Positions 3,076 to 14,885 of a stretch of 64,000 nucleotides of DNA are shown in pieces. Position numbers and translations under genes: made by a program. This DNA comes from Candidatus Omnitrophota bacterium (GTDB lineage Bacteria > Omnitrophota > Gorgyraeia > Zapsychrales > Fredricksoniimonadaceae). The DNA lies in the NCBI GenBank assembly GCA_903860135.1, contig CAIOPG010000009.1, positions 37,916-101,915 on the forward strand, in the 5' to 3' direction. Below the pieces are notes generated by a model, which saw only the letters and a program-made list of their open reading frames with translations, did not search any database and was not told the DNA's origin. The number at the start of each line of letters is the position of its first letter. The stretch's first letter is position 1.

Positions 3076-3689
3076 CCATGGAACCTTTTACGATGTTGAC
3101 CAGTATTGCTGTACCGATTGATCGTTCCAATGTTGATACCGATGCGATCATCCCCAAACAGTTCTTGAAAAAGATCGAACGCACGGGCTTCGGGAAGCAT
3201 TTGTTCCATGAGTGGCGTTACACCGACTATGAAGGAACCAGGGAGAACCCTGATTTTATCCTTAACAAGCCGCCTTTCCGTTCGGCCAAGATCCTTCTGG
3301 CACGCGATAATTTTGGTTGCGGGTCATCGCGTGAACATGCCCCCTGGGCCCTTTATGACTTTGGGTTCCGGTGCATTATTGCGCCTAGCTTTGCGGATAT
3401 TTTTTATAATAACTGCATCAAGAACGGGATCCTTCCCGTTACTTTGAAGAATGAAGAAATGGATGAACTTTTTGCTGTCGCGGCTTTTGGTAAATCCGGC
3501 CTGATCGCCGTGGATCTGGACAAACAGGTTGTCGGCGCCGCCGGGATGAAATTCGCATTTCAGGTAGAGCCGTTCAATAAAGACTGCCTTTTGAAAGGGC
3601 TTGATCAGATCGGCTGGTCACTCCAGTACGCCGAGAAGATCAATGCATTTGAAGCAGGTATCGCAGGATCAAAGCCCTGGCTTCAATAA
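3072..3689 (+). CDS. leuD: 3-isopropylmalate dehydratase small subunit
   Basis: ATGA start/stop overlap with leuC. LeuD-like sequence ([30 protein letters not shown]). 205 aa. Confidence 0.9.
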
Positions 3690-5656: not shown

Positions 5657-7838
5657 ACCAGCCTCATTCCTTCACCGCTGTTCGCTGGTCAAAAGGATAC
5701 CTGTCTTTTCCGGGTTGAGCTGGTTCCGTGTGCAGTCCATTGCCAGATCCGGCGAGATCATATTGTACAAGAAAGGGGACATTGTTTCCCGCAAAGGCAA
5801 TGCGCCCGACTTTGTCTATTTCCTTGATTCCGGCCGTTTGCAGTCATACTCGCCAGATGCTTCGGGCGGGAAAGATGATATTGAATTCATTCACCGCGGC
5901 ATGTTCTTCGGGATCATTTCCACCTTGACGGGGCAGGAACATTCCCAGACGTTTGAAGCCATCAATGATTCCATCATTTTCCGCATTCCGTTCACAGCTT
6001 TCCGGCGGTTGCTCAAACAGGCTCCGCGGCTGGGCATCAAATTCAGCAAGATCCTTTCCCAGCGCATCCGCAGCAAGCTCACACGCACGGAACTGGTGAG
6101 CCGCAGTACCATCATTTCAGTTTATGCGCCTATCGCCGGTTCGGGCGGATCTACGTATGCCGTCAATCTGGCGCTGAGCCTTTCCAAGGAAACAGGGCGA
6201 CGGGTGATATGGGTCAGTATCCGTTCCAGGCATTTTCCACCTTACACGGCGGTATCTGATATCAGCGAAGTCCGCCCGGCGTGGACCCGCGATCCTTTGG
6301 ATATCATCGCCCTTGCCGATAATTTTGAACTTATCCCCGGGCATATCATTAAAAGCGATGCCGGCATTGACCTTTTGAACGTGGTTTTTGACCCGAAAGA
6401 CCCTTCCATTGTTGAACATATCAGTGAGTTTATCAGCCGTTTCATTGATGAATACCGTTATGTGGTTCTTGATCTGCCCAGTGATATGGATGCTGTTGTC
6501 ATTAAAACGCTGTCGCAATCTGATCTTGTTCATCTCGTGATGGTGCGTAAACGCGAAGCCCTTGTGGTAGGCCGGGCTGTATTAGACAGGATCGAAGATT
6601 CTTTCAAAGATGGTTTTACCGAAGACCGCGTCAAGGTCATTATCGGCGGCGTGAGTGCCCACCGCAACATTGTCGAAGAAACGGTGCGCAGCCTTCTGGA
6701 TTATAAGGTTACAGGTTTTCTTCCGCATATCCAGCGCAAGGATTTCAGCGGGCAGGTCGATCTCGGGGCTGTTTCTTTCATGGGGCTTGATCCCGTGAGC
6801 CCCTACCGCAAGGTTGTTACCCGTATCGCGCGCGACATCTCGGGCGTATCGATCGGCCTTGTGCTCGGCGGCGGTGCCGCCTTTGGCCTGGCGCATATCG
6901 GCGTGCTCAAGGTCCTTGAAGAAGAAGGGATCCCTGTGGATATTGTAGCCGGGAGTTCGATGGGGGCATTGATCGGCAGTCTCTGGGCATCCGGTTACAA
7001 GGCCGCTGACATTGAAAAGATGGCTTTTGAATTCAGGAAAAGGTCCAATCTGATCAAATTGATCGATCTGGTCATCCCTGTTTCAGGTATTATCAGCGGT
7101 AAAGCCGTGATGTCCTGGCTGCGCGGCAAACTCGGCAAACGCACATTCCGCGATACCAAGATCCCGCTGAAAATTGTTGCCTATGACCTCATGCATCGCC
7201 GGGACCTGATCTTCAGTGAAGGTTCGATCATTGAGGCCATACGTAAAAGCATATCGATCCCCGGTGTTTTTCAACCCGTTATTTCCAAGGATCAGCTGAT
7301 CATCGATGGCGGCGTCATGAACCCGTTGCCAACCGATGTCCTGATCCATGCCGGTGTCAAACGCATCATTGCGGTGAATGTGCTTCAGTCGCCCGAAGAT
7401 GTTATCAAGGGTTACGAAAAAACAAGCCGCGAACTGGAGAAGTCACTGCAAGTGCAATTCATGCATGCCCCCCTGGAATACATCACCATCCACATCAAGT
7501 TATGGCTCAGCCGTAAATTCTTTCCCAATATCTCCGACATCATGGTGCGCACCCTTGAAGCTTCCGAAAGCACCCTGGCCGTCCAGAGTGGTCGGGCCGC
7601 CGATGTCCTGATCCATCCTGATCTGTCAGGCCTCAACTGGTACGACCTTCATCAAGCCGAGCTCCTGATCAACCAAGGCGAAGCCGCCGCCCGCGCCAGC
7701 CTCGATCAATTGAGACGCATCGTGACGCATCCGGGACCAGATAACCGAAAAAATATTAGTGTCAGGTCTCCCGAAAGTCAAAATATTAATATTAGTGTCA
7801 CGAATATTAGTGTCAGGTCTCCCGAAAGTCATATGTAA
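5649..7838 (+). CDS. cyclic-nucleotide-binding domain / degenerate ParA-MinD-like domain / patatin-like phospholipase fusion protein
   Basis: ATG at 5649 is in frame with ORF 5496-7838 and overlaps the SDR stop. The N-terminal region is a cNMP-binding (CAP_ED-like) fold. The middle region resembles a ParA/MinD fold whose Walker A has lost its lysine (VYAPIAGSGGSTYAVNLALSL). The C-terminal patatin domain has GGGAAFGLAHIGV, the GSSMG nucleophile elbow and DGG. Confidence 0.75.
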   Translation: MTEPASFLHRCSLVKRIPVFSGLSWFRVQSIARSGEIILYKKGDIVSRKGNAPDFVYFLDSGRLQSYSPDASGGKDDIEFIHRGMFFGIISTLTGQEHSQTFEAINDSIIFRIPFTAFRRLLKQAPRLGIKFSKILSQRIRSKLTRTELVSRSTIISVYAPIAGSGGSTYAVNLALSLSKETGRRVIWVSIRSRHFPPYTAVSDISEVRPAWTRDPLDIIALADNFELIPGHIIKSDAGIDLLNVVFDPKDPSIVEHISEFISRFIDEYRYVVLDLPSDMDAVVIKTLSQSDLVHLVMVRKREALVVGRAVLDRIEDSFKDGFTEDRVKVIIGGVSAHRNIVEETVRSLLDYKVTGFLPHIQRKDFSGQVDLGAVSFMGLDPVSPYRKVVTRIARDISGVSIGLVLGGGAAFGLAHIGVLKVLEEEGIPVDIVAGSSMGALIGSLWASGYKAADIEKMAFEFRKRSNLIKLIDLVIPVSGIISGKAVMSWLRGKLGKRTFRDTKIPLKIVAYDLMHRRDLIFSEGSIIEAIRKSISIPGVFQPVISKDQLIIDGGVMNPLPTDVLIHAGVKRIIAVNVLQSPEDVIKGYEKTSRELEKSLQVQFMHAPLEYITIHIKLWLSRKFFPNISDIMVRTLEASESTLAVQSGRAADVLIHPDLSGLNWYDLHQAELLINQGEAAARASLDQLRRIVTHPGPDNRKNISVRSPESQNINISVTNISVRSPESHM
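7752..7831. repeat. 29-bp perfect direct repeat (aatattagtgtcaggtctcccgaaagtca) x2 plus a partial copy between
   Basis: Identical 29-mers at 7752-7780 and 7803-7831 and a partial attagtgtca at 7791-7800. They encode the duplicated ISVRSPES tail of the patatin-fusion protein. Confidence 0.9.
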
Positions 7839-8125
7839 CAATAGCTTAAGTCTTAATCCTTGTTGATGATGTGCCGTAATAGACTTCGCGAAATAGGGTG
7901 CGGTATTTTTTTGTTGCGTCGAATTTGTGGGTAATATAAGATACGGCAGGATCAGGCTACCCCAGTCTGATGGAGAGAATAGAGTTAAGTGGTATTGAAT
8001 AGACTGCAAGTAGGTGGGGTTATCTGACCTTAAAGCCGTGTCGCAGAAATCAAATCGGATAACGATGTCTGATTTTAAGAACGCTGCTATCTGTTTGTAA
8101 AGCTTGAGGGGTTTGTTATCAGTAA

Positions 8126-8138
8126 TTATAGGAAGTTT
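8126..8138. repeat. partial (13/19) copy of the att-like 19-mer (attataggaagtt)
   Basis: Matches the 3' 13 bases of the 19-bp repeat found at 9153 and 19234. Confidence 0.5.
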
Positions 8139-8285
8139 ATCGGCAATTTATTGGCAATTCGTCGGCAATAAGGTATAAATGCTTATTTCTGTTTAAATCT
8201 ACCGTGATGATGGTGTTGCATTACCCACTTGTTACATATGTCATAGTGTGTTATATTCTTACTGGATAAGAAAGGAGTATTGATT

Positions 8286-8528
8286 ATGCTACTGACAATA
8301 GATTCTCGTAAAAGGATCCCACTAGGCAAGGTTCTTCTAGACACGGATGTTACTTTGTTTGACGCCAAGGTCGACGATAGCGGAAGGATCATCCTAGAGC
8401 CTATGCGCGCAGTTCCCGAAAGGGAGGCGTGGTTATACCAGAATCCCAAGGCTCTGGATTCCGTGATGATGGGACTCAAGGACTCTACCGAAGGACGGGT
8501 TAAGACTTATATCTCAAAAGAGAAATAG
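8286..8528 (+). CDS. type II antitoxin, AbrB/MazE/SpoVT-like
   Basis: ATG is 8 nt after the RBS AAAGGAG. The SRKRIPLGKV swapped-hairpin-like N-terminus. Lies immediately upstream of the toxin gene with a 2-nt gap. Confidence 0.5.
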   Translation: MLLTIDSRKRIPLGKVLLDTDVTLFDAKVDDSGRIILEPMRAVPEREAWLYQNPKALDSVMMGLKDSTEGRVKTYISKEK

Positions 8529-8530
8529 AT

Positions 8531-8821
8531 ATGTTCAAGGTCTTAACCACGATAACATTCGACGAAGAGTTTGCCGCATTGCGTCAGCAGAGGTCTATGG
8601 TTGCCAGGGTCAAGGCGATTGAAAAAACGCTTAAGTTATTGTCTAACCCAAGGCATCCTGGTCTTCAAACGCATGAGTTTACTTCACTCAAGGGTCCTAA
8701 CGGTGCCAAGGTCTTTGAGGCGTATGCCCAGCAGAATACACCCGCAGCTTACAGAGTGTTTTGGCATTACGGCCCTGGCCGGAACGAGATCACAGTCGTT
8801 GCCTTTACGTCCCATCCGTGA
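8531..8821 (+). CDS. type II toxin, RelE/ParE superfamily-like
   Basis: 96 aa, basic. The C-terminus YRVFWHYGPGRNEITVVAFTSHP fits a RelE/ParE-type fold. Antitoxin-then-toxin gene order. Confidence 0.5.
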   Translation: MFKVLTTITFDEEFAALRQQRSMVARVKAIEKTLKLLSNPRHPGLQTHEFTSLKGPNGAKVFEAYAQQNTPAAYRVFWHYGPGRNEITVVAFTSHP

Positions 8822-8910
8822 AATAGTGACTGTTACAAATCGGTGGGACACGTACGGAATACCCACATTAACACCCCAGCCTTCAAACGCATCAATATCA
8901 TTCAGTTTTT

Positions 8911-9039
8911 GGTCCTGGCGGAGAGAAGGTTTTTGAAGCTTATGCCGAGAACAATACGCCGGTGGCGTATAGAATTTTATTTTATTACGGCCATGTCCGC
9001 AGTGAAATTGATATTCTAATGATCGTTCCGCACCCTTAA
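8911..9039 (+). pseudogene. 3' fragment of a second, diverged RelE/ParE-like toxin gene
   Basis: Translates as GPGGEKVFEAYAENNTPVAYRILFYYGHVRSEIDILMIVPHP*, colinear with the toxin C-terminus (KGPNGAKVFEAYAQQNTPAAYRVFWHYGPGRNEITVVAFTSHP*). There is no start codon or N-terminal part. Confidence 0.55.
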
Positions 9040-9152
9040 TAAAATAGGGGATGGATGAAATTTCAAACGGATACGTATAATTTTGATGGTGAAGCCTCCA
9101 GGCAACCTAATGCGTATTACTCTGATTGCTCCCGCACAGTCGTACTTAACAT

Positions 9153-9171
9153 AACATATATTATAGGAAGT
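9153..9171. repeat. 19-bp direct repeat ACATATATTATAGGAAGTT (left copy, putative attL)
   Basis: Identical 19-mer recurs at 19234-19252, 10,081 bp away. Confidence 0.8.
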
Positions 9172-9185
9172 TCGTAATATAGCGA

Positions 9186-9217: not shown

Positions 9218-9877
9218 ATGCACACGCAAAACGATACAAGACACAAAACAAGCCTCAAAAAAGATTTCATCCCCACTTGGATCGAAGATCTATCCCTCCT
9301 AAAAGAATCAAACGCCTCAACCTTTGCCGTTTATCACGTTTTAAAGTTTTATGCCGTAGAATCCCCCACATTTGAGATCCACAAGATAACCGAAGGCGAC
9401 ATCCACGCTCAAACAGGACTTGAGCATAAAACCATCCGCAGGGCTCTTAACAAGCTTGAAAAGCTTGAAAAGATCATACGGATCGGATATTGCCGATACC
9501 GATTAGTTAATTTCTTTAAGTTTTCCACAACTTCGGGCAAAATGCCCGAACCTACCCAAAACCACTTCGGGCAAAATGCCCGAACCACTTCGGGCAAAAT
9601 GCCCGACAACTTCGGGCAAAATGCCCGCCCACTTCGGACAGAATGCCCGAACCCCTTATATTTTAATAGAAACGTAGACAGAGATTTAAAAGAGAGGTCT
9701 GGTGATAAATCACCAATCGAACAGCAAGAACATAACTGGTTGCGTATGCAATACCCGTTTCGTGATCGTGAAGGGTTAAAACAGCATTTAGTTAATAGAG
9801 GCTATTCAGAGCATGACGCAACGATGTTTATGGAAAGTTTTTATCAAGAATATACAGGAAAGGCTGGTGGCAAATGA
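9218..9877 (+). CDS. replication initiator protein (lambda O-like, iterons inside its own gene)
   Basis: 219 aa. N-terminal winged-helix-like region. The central segment is encoded by the iteron array (TSGKMPEPTQNHFGQNARTTSGKMPDNFGQNARP). Confidence 0.6.
   Translation: MHTQNDTRHKTSLKKDFIPTWIEDLSLLKESNASTFAVYHVLKFYAVESPTFEIHKITEGDIHAQTGLEHKTIRRALNKLEKLEKIIRIGYCRYRLVNFFKFSTTSGKMPEPTQNHFGQNARTTSGKMPDNFGQNARPLRTECPNPLYFNRNVDRDLKERSGDKSPIEQQEHNWLRMQYPFRDREGLKQHLVNRGYSEHDATMFMESFYQEYTGKAGGK
9529..9650. repeat. iteron array: 5 copies of palindromic cTTCGGGCAaaaTGCCCGAa (putative replication origin)
   Basis: Copies start at 9531, 9565, 9588, 9610 and 9632 (the last is degenerate: cttcggacagaatgcccga). 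Spacing is ~22 bp for four of them. Each unit contains the inverted repeat TCGGGCA/TGCCCGA. An AT-rich tract follows at 9655-9700. Confidence 0.75.
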
Positions 9878-10176
9878 CAGGAACACAGGTTTGTATGGAA
9901 TTTGACGGAAAAACGTTTGAAAGGAACATGGACGGCCAAAGGCTACGGACACAGCTTGAGCAAGTCTTTGATCTGATGAAAGACGCCTCTTGGCGAACAT
10001 TGCAAGAGATCGCACTTCTTTCCGGTTGTCCAGAGGCATCAATTTCCGCAAGGCTTCGAGATCTCCGCAAGGCAAAGTTTGGCAAGCACAACGTCAACCG
10101 CCGCAGACGTCCGTTGCATGACATTTTCGGGGTTTGGGAATATCAGCTTTTAACGGCTTATAACGGGCTTTATTGA
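9874..10176 (+). CDS. hypothetical winged-HTH-like DNA-binding protein
   Basis: ATGA overlap with rep. 100 aa, basic. Confidence 0.4.
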   Translation: MTGTQVCMEFDGKTFERNMDGQRLRTQLEQVFDLMKDASWRTLQEIALLSGCPEASISARLRDLRKAKFGKHNVNRRRRPLHDIFGVWEYQLLTAYNGLY

Positions 10177-10364: not shown

Positions 10365-10579
10365 ATATGTTCGGATTGATTTTTATATCGTCGGTGTTGG
10401 TTGTTCTAGTGGTCGCTATCCGTTTATCCTCTACATACGAGGTTAAACACGGGCTCATTAACTTGAGAAAGGACATGCCAGATGAAACACTTTCATTGTC
10501 AGATGTGCGAACAGATGCTGGACGGTCAGCCGAAAATGAGGTTTGCTCTGATCGGGTTTTGTTGGGAGCCGTCGCTTAA
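10361..10579 (+). CDS. small membrane protein (single TM)
   Basis: Hydrophobic N-terminus LIFISSVLVVLVVAI. Overlaps the next ORF, so one of the two probably starts later. Confidence 0.25.
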   Translation: MNMFGLIFISSVLVVLVVAIRLSSTYEVKHGLINLRKDMPDETLSLSDVRTDAGRSAENEVCSDRVLLGAVA

Positions 10580-10859
10580 CAAGGATCCCAGCGAGTTATT
10601 GAATATTTGCGAGGCTTGCCAGCACGCTTTTCTGAAAGCCTACGCGAAAGCAAAGAACGAGTGCCTTGAGGCAGTTTACGAGAAGCAAAAAACGGCTTGG
10701 ATTATGGACAAGATGGAAGGCTTGGAAAAAGCGCGCGGCAGGGTGAGCGTTGGATCTGCAAGGACAGTCAACCGCCTATCCCCCGCACAGGAAGCAATGG
10801 CCGATAATGGGCGCTGGAATTACAGCCACAACGAAGCGCAAAAGGTTTGGAGGTTTTAA
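10482..10859 (+). CDS. zinc-finger (2x CxxC) protein
   Basis: HCQMCEQM ... ICEACQHAF. Start uncertain (alternative ATGs at 10503 and 10536). Confidence 0.4.
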   Translation: MKHFHCQMCEQMLDGQPKMRFALIGFCWEPSLNKDPSELLNICEACQHAFLKAYAKAKNECLEAVYEKQKTAWIMDKMEGLEKARGRVSVGSARTVNRLSPAQEAMADNGRWNYSHNEAQKVWRF

Positions 10860-11071: not shown

Positions 11072-11428
11072 ATGGCAAAGTCAGCAACGAGTTTTGCAAA
11101 GAAGGTTTTTGAAGCGCCGTGTCCTTCATGTCACAGCAAGGATGCAATCGGTAAAACCCGTTGTCCATGTGGCGCACAGCGCAGGGCAAATGGTCAGGTT
11201 TATTTTGACGGCAAAGACATTGAAAAGCCCGTTGCGCCCGTGTCCGAGCCCGTCAAATCACCCGTTAAAACAAAAACGGGCTCTCCGTCGGTGAGCCCAT
11301 TAAAAAAAAGGAGCCCGTCAAATGGTAAGAAAGAGCCCGTCAAAAGCCCGTCAAAAACCCGTGTTGAGCCCGTCACCGAGCCCGTCCGAGCCCGTGAAAG
11401 TAGCCTCTCCACATACTTCTATGACTGA
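11072..11428 (+). CDS. Zn-ribbon protein with lysine/proline/serine-rich (histone H1-like) tail
   Basis: AAGGAGG RBS. CPSCHS...CPCGAQ followed by (E)PVKSP repeats. Confidence 0.45.
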   Translation: MAKSATSFAKKVFEAPCPSCHSKDAIGKTRCPCGAQRRANGQVYFDGKDIEKPVAPVSEPVKSPVKTKTGSPSVSPLKKRSPSNGKKEPVKSPSKTRVEPVTEPVRARESSLSTYFYD

Positions 11429-11915
11429 TCCGGAAAATGTGAGAATGAGCGCACAGGATTCGGGGCTGGATGATCTTGTTGCAAAGCTGGGATCCGGTGC
11501 AAGTGCGCCAGCGGCCGATCCCTCCCCCGCTATGGTTGAGCCGGCAGATCTTGAGATATATAAAAGGCTGGTTAAGCCGGTTTGTTTGGTGGCCGGCTGG
11601 GGCATCGACAAGATCAACCGGCGCTTTCTTAAGTGTGAGTTCACGCCGTTCACGGATGGTCAGGTCGCCATGCTTGAGGATGATCTATCTTTTGTATTAA
11701 AGGACGCGCTGGACAAGATCTTGCCAGACATGGCCAAGAAAAACCCGCGCATGGTGTCGCTTGTGATGATCTTCGGGATGATCTACGCATCCAACACGCG
11801 CCGGATCATAGAGGCGCCGAAGCCGGCAGAGCCAGCCAAAGAAACAAAGCCCGTGCCGAGCGTGCATGAGGTTCACATCAAAACAGCAGAAGGCGTGATC
11901 GGGGGCATTCAATGA
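11421..11915 (+). CDS. hypothetical protein (ATGA-overlapping start; the ORF track extends it upstream to 11322)
   Basis: ATG at 11421 overlaps the stop of the preceding gene in the typical phage fashion. The upstream extension overlaps the previous CDS by 107 nt. Confidence 0.4.
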   Translation: MTDPENVRMSAQDSGLDDLVAKLGSGASAPAADPSPAMVEPADLEIYKRLVKPVCLVAGWGIDKINRRFLKCEFTPFTDGQVAMLEDDLSFVLKDALDKILPDMAKKNPRMVSLVMIFGMIYASNTRRIIEAPKPAEPAKETKPVPSVHEVHIKTAEGVIGGIQ

Positions 11916-12386: not shown

Positions 12387-12632
12387 GTGAAAATTACAAA
12401 ATGGGTCAGCGTTGATGTTGAGGTTGACGTTGACGTATCAAGTGAGGATATACCGGAAATCTTTTCAAAGTCGTGTGAATGCTACCATGATTTCTTGGCG
12501 ATATTGAACAGGTTCTTTTCTGTAATGAAGAACATGCCGGATCACATTATTAAGGACATGACGGAGAAACAGCGTGAAATAACAAAAAACTACCTTATTG
12601 AACAGTCAAAAAGGTTTTCAGATGCACAATGA
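12387..12632 (+). CDS. small acidic hypothetical protein
   Basis: GTG start. 81 aa. Ends inside the ATPase start region. Confidence 0.3.
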   Translation: MKITKWVSVDVEVDVDVSSEDIPEIFSKSCECYHDFLAILNRFFSVMKNMPDHIIKDMTEKQREITKNYLIEQSKRFSDAQ

Positions 12633-13233
12633 AATCATCGTCATTCTAGGCAAGAAAGGATCTGGCAAAACGGTCATGGCGCGGCATATGGTCAGCGACA
12701 AGCGCCGTCTGATCGTCTACGATCCCATGCGGCAGTTTTCGTCATGCGGCGTCGTGCTGGTGCGCTTCGAGGATCTTGTTGCCTACATCAGCCACAACAG
12801 GCGCGGCCACTTCCGCGCGGTTTACCAGCCAGAGATCCCGATTGATGCAACAAACGACATAGTGCGTGCCGAGTTCATCCGCATGTGTGATCTGGTCAAT
12901 CGGCTGGTCAACGTGTATTTCCTTGTCGATGAAATTGATAATTGCCTCCCCCCGCGTGACCGTGAGAACGGCTTTTTCAAGAACATGATCCAGCGCGGCC
13001 GGCACGCGCAAGTCAGCCTTGTTGCAACGACGATCCGCTACACGGACACCCAGCGCAATTTGACCGCCCAGGCAGACACGATCATTTGCTTTCATACGCA
13101 TGAGCCGTCTGACGTTAAGTATTTCCGCAATTACTTCGGGGTCATGGCTGACGATCTCCACCAACTCCCCCCCTATCATTATGTCAAATACGATAAAGGA
13201 CAAGTCAGCCGCCATGAGCCTATCAGATTATAA
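12622..13233 (+). CDS. P-loop ATPase, putative genome-packaging ATPase (FtsK/HerA-A32-like small ATPase of membrane-containing phages)
   Basis: Walker A ILGKKGSGKT and Walker B YFLVDEIDN. ~204 aa, no TM segment. Confidence 0.55.
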   Translation: MHNEIIVILGKKGSGKTVMARHMVSDKRRLIVYDPMRQFSSCGVVLVRFEDLVAYISHNRRGHFRAVYQPEIPIDATNDIVRAEFIRMCDLVNRLVNVYFLVDEIDNCLPPRDRENGFFKNMIQRGRHAQVSLVATTIRYTDTQRNLTAQADTIICFHTHEPSDVKYFRNYFGVMADDLHQLPPYHYVKYDKGQVSRHEPIRL

Positions 13234-14033: not shown

Positions 14034-14885
14034 ATGCAGATATTCATGTTTCCCACAACCAGAGGATTAGGCACGATCCCAGGCGTTGCCGCTGGCGCTC
14101 TTTTGACCGCCAAGATCCCCACGAACGGCAAGAAGTACGGCTTCTTCCTTCTTGGTAAGACGGCCGCTGGCGTAGCGCTGACAGCCGCACAGCTGAACGC
14201 TGACATTGGCGACATCGTTGTCCGTGTTAAGGGTGAAGCGAAGATCGAAGCATCCTGCACAGAGTTGCTGATGATCCAGAAGTATTTAGGCGACGCGAAC
14301 GTTGCCGGCAACATCAGCGGGATCGTTCCGATCTTCCTGACGCCGCGCGATCTCGCAACGTATCAAGAACGCCGTGCGCTGGCTTGGGGCACAGCCGACA
14401 TCGACAGCATCACCATTGAGATCAAGATCGTTGGCGTGGCACAGCTCGCCAGCCTTGAGCTCTTTGAGTATGCGTCTGATGAGCAGGAAGTGCTTGGCAC
14501 TCACCTGACGATCCGCCGTTTCCCGCATTCGTTTGCGTCAACGGGCGTGCAGGAGATCTCCGACCTTGTCAGCAACGTGCCTGACATGGCGTATCGCACG
14601 ATCTTCTTGCAGAAGAACACCGCCGACATCACAAATGTCAGCTGTAAGGTCAACAACGCGCTGGTCTACGATCAGGTTCCGGAAGCGTTAAACAACGTAT
14701 TGAACGAGGACGGCAACCGCAAGGCGCAGTCTGGTTATTACGCGATTGACTTCTCCCGCATTCGCGATCTCGCAGGGATGCTCCCGATGAAGGGCATTAC
14801 GGACTTCCGCGTCACCCCGACATGGGCGACCAATGCGCCGGCGAGTTACAACATCATCGGCATCATCTATAAGGGCTTGAAATAA
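14034..14885 (+). CDS. putative major capsid protein (size and position consistent with a double jelly-roll MCP)
   Basis: RBS AAAGGAG. 283 aa, beta-rich composition, no TM segment. The largest soluble protein in the structural block. Confidence 0.45.
   Translation: MQIFMFPTTRGLGTIPGVAAGALLTAKIPTNGKKYGFFLLGKTAAGVALTAAQLNADIGDIVVRVKGEAKIEASCTELLMIQKYLGDANVAGNISGIVPIFLTPRDLATYQERRALAWGTADIDSITIEIKIVGVAQLASLELFEYASDEQEVLGTHLTIRRFPHSFASTGVQEISDLVSNVPDMAYRTIFLQKNTADITNVSCKVNNALVYDQVPEALNNVLNEDGNRKAQSGYYAIDFSRIRDLAGMLPMKGITDFRVTPTWATNAPASYNIIGIIYKGLK

Follow-up and report, generated by a model that had tools for sequence, protein, structure and literature searches.

We analysed a stretch of 64,000 nucleotides from a Candidatus Omnitrophota bacterium (contig CAIOPG010000009.1, positions 37,916 to 101,915), hereafter referred to as the window. 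It contains a PM2-like (corticovirus-like, Vinavirales) prophage with a P2_N/P2_C capsid gene, a packaging ATPase gene and attachment (att) repeats located 10,080 bp apart. The first gene of the prophage, an open reading frame (ORF) at 9218-9877 on the plus strand, encodes a putative replication initiator of 219 amino acids, here called Rep. Inside this gene, at codons 105-145 of 219, are five copies of a 19-bp palindromic unit (9532-9651, Table 1). Five palindromic repeats inside an initiator gene had been described in an earlier note on this DNA, and they were recovered here: in every unit, two inverted arms of 8 bp each flank a central AAA, TTCGGGCA-AAA-TGCCCGAA. Copies 3 and 4 deviate from TTCGGGCAAAATGCCCGAA in the final one or two bases only, and the last copy is degenerate, as the note had stated. 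The spacing from centre to centre, as well as from start to start, is 34, 23, 22 and 22 bp; a spacing of about 22 bp, as previously suggested, thus applies to the last three intervals but not to the first.

A search of the 64 kb with this pattern, allowing for up to three mismatches, gave 7 matches, all of which fall within 9532-9651 and two of which represent the palindromic reading of the minus strand. The expected number of matches was 0.03 and none of 100 shuffled sequences reached 7 matches at the same threshold, so that the array cannot be explained by chance. No second repeat array was found elsewhere in the prophage in repeat and pattern scans. Iterons 1 to 5 begin at codon positions 2, 0, 2, 0 and 1, and hence use three reading frames. 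The peptide TSGKMP..FGQNAR is present twice because two consecutive intervals of 23 and 22 bp add up to 45 bp, or 15 codons, and the fifth unit, in the third frame, reads PLRTECP. The claim of an in-frame array that encodes this repeated peptide was therefore correct as to the location inside the rep coding sequence and the presence of the peptide, but not as to the frame.

The array is flanked by elements of the kind seen in replication origins. The AT-rich tract that had been noted after the array was confirmed at 9656-9695, where it ties for the most AT-rich 40-nt segment of the 10.08-kb prophage (99.98th percentile). On the other side, the 9-mer TTTTCCACA, which fits a relaxed DnaA box consensus, is found 2 nt upstream of iteron 1. 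A DnaA box, iterons and an AT-rich region make up the standard triad of iteron-type theta origins. Just past the AT-rich tract is a 16-bp palindrome; in lambda, too, a palindrome is located to the right of the AT-rich region. A scan for consensus promoters and terminators gave matches at chance level only.

An AlphaFold2 model of Rep, which was built on a 27-sequence alignment, predicts an N-terminal winged helix-turn-helix (wHTH) domain with helices at residues 22-30, 33-48, 59-66 and 70-82 and strands at residues 86-90 and 93-96, and a small C-terminal domain (Table 1). Residues 106-162, precisely those for which the iterons and the AT-rich tract code, are predicted to be disordered (predicted local distance difference test, pLDDT, <50). 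The model shows no catalytic domain. Among predicted viral structures (BFVD), the best fold matches were phage replication initiators, replisome organizers and helix-turn-helix (HTH) proteins, with a best E-value of 2.7e-5. Matches to PHROG profiles were weak (phrog_270, "replication initiation protein", E = 7e-4), and the O-like profiles phrog_678 and phrog_345 matched the N-terminal part of Rep at E = 0.014 and 0.034, respectively. Sub-threshold Pfam matches among the 27 family members were to HTH_36 (10/27) and Phage_rep_O (5/27).

Table 1. Features of the rep gene and of the surrounding prophage, in positions of the window.
Feature	Position	Strand	Description or basis
Initiator (Rep) gene, 219 amino acids, first gene of the prophage, holds the array	9218-9877	+	ORF
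Predicted N-terminal winged-helix DNA-binding domain, residues ~20-100	9275-9517	+	AlphaFold2, pLDDT 85-97
DnaA-box-like 9-mer TTTTCCACA	9521-9529	+	fits relaxed consensus TTWTNCACA; 2 nt upstream of iteron 1
Iteron 1	9532-9550	+	exact TTCGGGCAAAATGCCCGAA
Iteron 2	9566-9584	+	exact TTCGGGCAAAATGCCCGAA
Iteron 3	9589-9607	+	TTCGGGCAAAATGCCCGAC, ends GAC
Iteron 4	9611-9629	+	TTCGGGCAAAATGCCCGCC, ends GCC
Iteron 5	9633-9651	+	TTCGGACAGAATGCCCGAA, two mismatches, both internal
AT-rich tract, presumed DNA unwinding element	9656-9695	+	77.5% AT
16-bp palindrome TGGTGATAAATCACCA	9700-9715	+	just past the AT-rich tract; read from the sequence, stem reported on the minus strand
C-terminal three-helix domain, residues ~169-208, presumed host-factor recruitment module	9722-9841	+	pLDDT ~90
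PM2-like packaging ATPase	12598-13233	+	phrog_2666, E = 8e-25; P-loop Pfam matches
Major capsid protein	14034-14885	+	Pfam P2_C 8.8e-15 and P2_N 3.5e-13, both above curated cut-offs
Small HTH_17 (excisionase/MerR-type) gene, right end	18997-19188	+	Pfam HTH_17, 2e-12
Left junction, 28-bp dif-like site (11+6+11), ACTTAACATAA-CATATA-TTATAGGAAGT	9144-9171	+	46 bp upstream of the Rep start codon
Right junction	19224-19251	+	keeps the central region and the TTATAGGAAGT arm, other arm phage-derived; junction alignment

The Rep family and its repeat arrays

A single-sequence search of a set of 5.8 billion proteins identified one non-self homologue of Rep. An exhaustive HMMER search of 1.84 billion representatives gave 14 matches, one of which was a spurious repeat protein (P0015), and a profile search recovered 24 family proteins, none of them with a Pfam domain. 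No relative with a solved structure was found with the full-family profile. No homologue was detected in a tblastn search of Rep against 50,697 phage records, and blastn of positions 9500-9720 against phage and plasmid collections gave no match. Likewise, no related loci were identified in a search of viral contigs with two close Reps or in a search of genome contigs with the window Rep. The broad family alignment was too divergent for pattern building.

Eleven relatives were compared at the DNA level (L001, L009-L016, L021 and L022). All eleven belong to elements that contain a PM2-type capsid gene and in which rep is the first gene, and these elements either adjoin host genes or occupy contigs of about 9-12 kb that look circularly permuted (L013, L022). 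Related elements were found in metagenome-assembled genomes (MAGs) labelled Omnitrophota and Planctomycetales, plus one labelled Gastranaerophilales. The window-type N-terminal domain is present in ten of the relatives (L001, L009-L016 and L022), at 20-60% identity, and all ten have an array at the same codons (start at codon 97-107). In nine of these (L001, L009-L012, L014-L016 and L022) the array consists of five units with a spacing of 34/35, 22/23, 22/23 and 22/23 bp, and L013 has three units. The earlier note had named an absence of iterons from related elements with the same Rep as evidence that would refute its reading; none of these ten elements lacks them.

The sequences of the units differ among the elements: TTCGGGAGAAACTCCCGAA in L001, AGGACAATAATTGTCCT in L009, AGAGCCCTAAAGGCTCT in L010, TTGCGGGAAAACCCCGCAA in L011, TTTCGCATAAAATGCGAAA in L012, TTGCGCCCAAAGGGCGCAA in L013, TTTAGGGGAAACCCCGAAA in L014, TTTAGCCTAAAAGGCGAAA and a close variant in L015 and L016, and CTCGGGCAAAATGCCCGAC in L022. 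Symmetry statistics were calculated from 48 units from the window and nine relatives, the units of L022 being read by eye instead. The centre of the unit is A in all 48, and at distances 3, 4, 5, 7 and 8 from it the arms are complementary in 42-47 of the 48 units. Two or three different Watson-Crick pair types were observed across the elements at distances 3, 4, 6 and 7. The arms of a unit are complementary at 6.3 of 7 positions, as compared to 3.6 of 7 when arms were swapped between elements. The geometry and the symmetry have thus been kept with both arms changing together, which is the pattern expected of sites that co-evolve with a dimeric binding protein.

The comparison with the closest relative, P0002 (L001, 60% identity), points to constraints at the nucleotide level. 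Nucleotide conservation in the repeat stretch is 0.77, versus 0.64-0.67 in the rest of the gene. The codon differences between the window gene and P0002 comprise 7 synonymous and 15 non-synonymous changes in the repeat stretch, and 27 synonymous and 29 non-synonymous changes (about 1:1) in the segment for the N-terminal domain. As judged from these alignments, selection acts on the repeat DNA rather than on the peptide. At the position of the AT-rich tract, L001 is 72% AT although the amino acids there are only 43% identical, and the 14-bp core GGTGATAAATCACC of the palindrome at 9700-9715 recurs unchanged in L001 even though the two proteins share only 60% of their residues. The 9-mer TTTTCCACA is located at the same offset in L001 (486-494), and a perfect TTATCCACA is located at the same offset in L022 (6212-6220), in which Rep is 27% identical to the window Rep. 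In L009 and L010, matches to the DnaA box some 450 nt upstream of the iterons were rejected, as they represent host DNA to the left of the dif-like junction.

Two pairs of elements relate the unit sequence to the N-terminal domain. L010 and L013 have in common the residues HRRAIR at the start of the predicted recognition helix and the iteron core GAGCCC-AAA-GGCTC, and L015 and L016 have in common HLR and the iteron core TTTAGCNTAAAAGGCGAAA (TTTAGCNT...AGGCGAAA). The eleventh relative, L021 (P0013, 99-743), represents a natural domain swap, in which the C-terminal domain is of the window type and the N-terminal domain is of another type. The CCCCTATATA AT-rich stretch is retained in L021, but the palindrome array is absent and its place is taken by three short AACGCC tandem 12-mers (431-463). 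Across the sequences compared, the array tracks the N-terminal domain; the links are qualitative.

The C-terminal module is more variable, with the window-type domain kept in part of the family and other modules in the rest. At least three other C-terminal types, including a Cys-rich one, were found behind the same N-terminal domain and array. In approximately half of the family, a Cys-rich, zinc-finger-like module (CxxC ... C ... C) replaces the three-helix domain. Cys-rich or other alternative ends were seen in the family alignment in P0007, P0016, P0018, P0019, P0021-P0023 and P0028-P0030, and further variants have a longer helical tail or a GITEAEAD-type end. The distribution of these ends suggests interchangeable recruitment modules behind one DNA-binding head.

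The subfamily L009-L016 has three to five ACAGAT(A) repeats directly 3' of the array, in which the Thr-Asp codons are always identical, and these repeats may constitute a second DNA-level element of the origin. The stretch corresponds to the 40-60 nt after the last iteron (listed for L009-L016 and L022; e.g., ~567-610 in L015 and ~3832-3875 in L010). At this place the window and L001 have a plain AT-rich tract with one degenerate copy of ACAGAT (GTAGACAGAGAT, 9673-9684 in the window).

Two motif scans outside the family gave no further relatives. A scan of metagenomes for a DnaA box together with TCGGG-N7-CCCGA returned 35 loci, none with an iteron array, and was uninformative on the Rep family; most of these loci correspond to one conserved marine protein of about 808 amino acids with a coincidental match. 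In a scan of viral contigs for two adjacent TTCGGG-N7-CCCG units, only two loci were found, L007 and L008, both of which are unrelated. L007 (IMGVR_UViG_3300035696_000129, 38 kb) has four perfect 21-bp repeats GACGTTTCGGGAAAATCCCCC at 785-864 within an ORF of 350 amino acids, where they encode the peptide VSGKSPD four times. No Pfam or PHROG match was obtained for this ORF, and its repeats may represent another origin inside a gene. L008 (IMGVR_UViG_3300025324_000038, 20.5 kb) has three palindromes TTCGGGCATAGTGCCCGA at 3540-3640, one of which reads CATTG, in apparently non-coding DNA; their outer arms are identical to those of the window iterons.

A candidate origin and its alternatives

We consider it likely, from the sequence comparisons and the predicted fold, that the array is the Rep-bound iteron core of a theta-type replication origin, and that this origin is contained in its initiator's own gene. 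The features of an iteron origin found here are five 19-bp repeats in helical phase (such origins have three or more, of about 17-22 bp), an AT-rich neighbour and a cis-encoded initiator with a predicted wHTH domain. An origin embedded in the initiator gene in the style of lambda O had been proposed in the earlier note, and the proposal gained support from the arrays of the relatives, the swapped element L021, the predicted fold and the parallel in layout.

On the basis of how the array is built and conserved, of how its arms co-vary and of the fold predicted for Rep, we infer the following course of binding, bending, melting, helicase recruitment and replication. Dimers of the 219-amino-acid Rep would bind each dyad-symmetric 19-bp unit via the N-terminal winged helix. 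The last four of the five sites are about two helical turns apart and every site has an A-tract at its centre; the bound dimers would therefore be placed on roughly one face of the DNA, which would be bent or wrapped as in the lambda O-some. The resulting strain could open the adjacent AT-rich tract, and the C-terminal helical domain could then bring in the host helicase, probably aided by host DnaA at the TTTTCCACA box, after which the circle of about 10 kb would be replicated. The same DNA, in three frames, would encode a disordered linker between the two domains that is tolerant of a sequence dictated by the DNA.

Several observations weigh against this reading or limit its detail. Common descent partly confounds the co-variation of Rep and iterons, and the comparison covers no more than eleven elements. 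The iteron core of L022 is nearly the same as that of the window although its Rep is only 27% identical, and the specificity code is thus not simple. The fold matches in the PDB were generic dimeric wHTH regulators (CRP/FNR, IclR, MarR, TubR), none of them below E = 0.001, and the window Rep has no Pfam match at E <= 0.01. In a comparison with lambda O, hhalign gave a probability of 21% over 38 HTH columns. The DnaA-box 9-mer is missing at this position in the larger subfamily L009-L016, and since it falls in conserved coding sequence (F/L-S-T) its weight is only moderate. The non-coding segment 18918-18957 is a second, equally AT-rich 40-nt segment of the prophage. Finally, the C-terminal domain modelled alone gave no PDB fold match and no meaningful sequence match, and the recruitment of a helicase is a guess because no helicase, primase or loader was recognised and this domain is without matches.

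The segment at 18918-18957 also enters into an alternative according to which the repeats are Rep sites for control (autorepression, roadblock, titration, handcuffing or incompatibility), with the origin elsewhere, for example in that segment. Plasmid iterons also serve copy-number control, and the array is located inside the transcribed rep gene, as would suit such a role. However, the DnaA-box-like 9-mer on one side of the array and the top AT-rich segment on the other correspond to the canonical origin triad, no second repeat array is present in the prophage, and the five-site geometry has been kept across 20-30% identity. We regard an origin elsewhere as unlikely; control and initiation are compatible roles, which may coexist at the array. 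Partition or packaging is a further role that could be served by an array of short repeats, as is seen in centromeres, and TubR, a wHTH protein that binds centromeres, was among the weak PDB fold matches (ranks 16 and 42). That the array is such a centromere-like or packaging site, with a wHTH protein on it as in TubR/tubC partition, is nevertheless quite improbable: the element has no ParA, ParM or TubZ-type partner, its sole NTPase being the capsid-packaging ATPase common to PM2-like elements, it integrates at a dif-like site and so has no need for partition, and the best viral fold matches are replication initiators.

The palindromes might instead act as hairpins or cruciforms in single-stranded DNA or messenger RNA, for example in a single-strand origin, in rolling-circle priming or as a translational pause, and not as duplex protein sites. 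A stem of 8 bp is possible in each unit, the fold of the single strand is far better than that of shuffled sequences (z = -6.2), the arms co-vary, and PM2 replicates by rolling circle (PMC1950889). Against this, almost every copy in L014, L015 and L016 has an A/G mismatch at distance 6 that is not compensated (TTTAG...CGAAA), the positions at distances 1-2 are mostly unpaired with an invariant A at the centre of the coding strand, and conservation concerns the spacing, of about two helical turns. The scanned ORFs gave no match to an HUH or Rep_trans endonuclease and Rfam searches gave only noise, and we find a hairpin function quite improbable as well. The explanation to which we give the least credence is that the repeat is a peptide motif in the linker and that the symmetry of the DNA is incidental. 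Although TSGKMP..FGQNAR occurs twice, the five units lie in three reading frames, which excludes a role as a peptide repeat, and the region is predicted to be disordered. Moreover, the relatives keep the spacing and the symmetry but not the peptide, and there are more non-synonymous than synonymous changes, with no change in the nucleotides of the outer arms.

Building on the interpretation of the array as a Rep-bound origin, we tentatively propose a one-gene replicon, an extension that we put forward with considerable doubt. It would consist of a fixed 34/23/22/22 scaffold in which the site and the head of the protein have co-diversified into a dozen or more specificities, combined with three to four or more C-terminal modules, and with ACAGAT(A) as a new unwinding or loading element in the larger subfamily, where the DnaA box is missing. 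If so, orthogonal Rep/origin pairs would be available from nature for Omnitrophota and Planctomycetota, two phyla for which there are no genetic tools.

Prophage context and integration site

The recognised genes of the prophage are all on the plus strand. With Pfam and PHROG, none of the scanned prophage ORFs was recognised as an integrase, helicase, primase, polymerase or rolling-circle endonuclease, and Rep is the only replication protein recognised in the element with these profiles. The HTH_17 gene at the right end is equally placed in L009, L010 and L022, and the end of this gene is visible in L001. In the circular-looking contigs it is located directly upstream of the att site and Rep.

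The prophage is bounded by a perfect 19-bp direct repeat (9154-9172 and 19234-19252, 10,080 bp apart). At the left junction of L009, L010, L011, L012, L014, L016 and L020 we identified an 11+6+11 site, AGTTAACATAA GATATA TTATAGGAAGT, and the host flanks differ among these seven elements. The circular-looking L013, L001 and L022 each contain a single dif-like copy, which is located between Rep and the HTH_17 gene. In the window, GC skew and gene orientation switch at the dif-like site, the arms of which, we presume, resemble those of E. coli and B. subtilis dif. Because elements without an integrase are located at dif-like sites with different host flanks, they probably use the host Xer system at a dif-like site, at the chromosome terminus. 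Integration via host Xer has been reported for a few tailless Vibrio prophages (PMC11630473).

A left prophage end at a partial repeat at 8119-8137 was rejected; the perfect 19-bp pair and the family junction alignment place it at 9144-9171. Between this partial att/dif arm (79% match) and the full dif-like site is an islet of about 1 kb (8109-9171) with two small, adjacent ORFs (8280-8528 and 8531-8821) that have a toxin-antitoxin-like look and no Pfam match. The islet may be the remnant of another dif-integrated element. A second assembly (L004) contains the same prophage at 99.8% identity with the same right flank (mutY) and different DNA to the left of 7748, which could be due to a rearrangement beside the terminus or to an assembly artefact. 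At that point, 29-bp direct repeats AATATTAGTGTCAGGTCTCCCGAAAGTCA occupy 7752-7780 and 7803-7831, and a third copy, 13 bp in length, is found at 7788. Elsewhere in the window, positions 43518-63968 on the minus strand form a single ORF of 6,816 amino acids.

Comparison with known replication systems

An origin inside the initiator gene is textbook knowledge for lambdoid phages. In the annotation of oriλ (J02459) there are four iterons of 18 bp, ATCCCTCAAAACGAGGGA and variants, with starts 20, 24 and 23 bp apart. They are inverted repeats (TCCCTC-AAAAC-GAGGGA) located midway along gene O, at codons ~117-145 of 299. These A-centred inverted repeats are followed by an AT-rich stretch, and they add residues to the linker of the O protein (PMC7466680, PMC6022878). 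The array described here resembles lambda O/oriλ and other lambdoids in its location in the middle of the initiator gene, between the N-terminal DNA-binding part and the C-terminal part, with A-centred inverted repeats of 18-19 bp placed 20-24 bp apart and an AT-rich stretch directly after, and in both proteins the HTH is located about 13 residues before the first iteron. It differs in that there are five sites rather than four (six in Stx phages) and a fixed long first interval of 34-35 bp, and in the DnaA-box-like 9-mer that abuts iteron 1. The C-terminal domain is only about 50 amino acids and unrelated, and the element is a tailless double jelly-roll element, unlike lambda, which is a tailed phage.

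At the sequence level, no similarity between the window Rep and lambda O was detected with BLASTP, and the window Rep has no match to PF04492 (Phage_rep_O) even at E <= 1; the best E-value for a family member was 0.037, below the cut-off. A P-like loader was not recognised either: the downstream ORFs at 9874-10176, 10482-10859 and 11322-11915 have no Pfam match, and only the first matches a PHROG, of unknown function; a loader of a novel type may nevertheless be present. From the analogy in layout we conclude that Rep and its array would work like lambda O/ori, yet cannot be filed in the O family.

Plasmid theta origins (pSC101, P1, F, RK2, R6K) have direct repeats in helical phase, a cis-encoded wHTH Rep, an adjacent DnaA box and AT-rich unwinding element, and use the host helicase. 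The locus resembles them in its helically phased repeats, the cis-encoded wHTH Rep and the neighbouring AT-rich region. Plasmid iterons are normally located outside rep and, being bound by monomers, are usually not dyad-symmetric, in contrast to the palindromic, translated units seen here. The initiator G38P of Bacillus phage SPP1 is a two-domain protein with oriL inside gene 38, and the phage encodes its own helicase and loader. As in SPP1, the initiator gene holds its own, here putative, binding repeats, and BFVD matches to Rep are named "replisome organizer".

Within the Vinavirales, replication genes are often replaced and include rolling-circle Reps, plasmid-type RepA and "DnaD-like winged HTH" initiators (PMC1950889, PMC9502842). 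In agreement with the replication modules of this group, Rep is the first gene of an early rightward block. It differs from the rolling-circle endonuclease P12 of PM2 in being a wHTH protein, and its family has no Pfam model. We found no report of iterons in Vinavirales in the searchable literature. The earlier note had called the arrangement unusual for a corticovirus-like element, a view that we revise: it is the rule throughout one clade of these elements, and the modules of Vinavirales are often swapped, wHTH initiators included (PMC1950889, PMC9502842).

The analysis assigns a putative function to an unannotated family, which comprises about two dozen clusters in a set of 5.8 billion proteins and lacks Pfam domains, and identifies the likely origin for a clade of PM2-like prophages whose MAGs carry the labels Omnitrophota and Planctomycetales. 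With a common geometry and different sequences, the eleven arrays form a small natural data set in which a winged helix and a translated palindromic site appear to change together. For the specialist this is a tidy extension and no surprise. The locus is a new example of a well-known origin design and no new kind of system, and it would extend the lambda solution, an origin in the linker of the initiator gene, to tailless double jelly-roll viruses.

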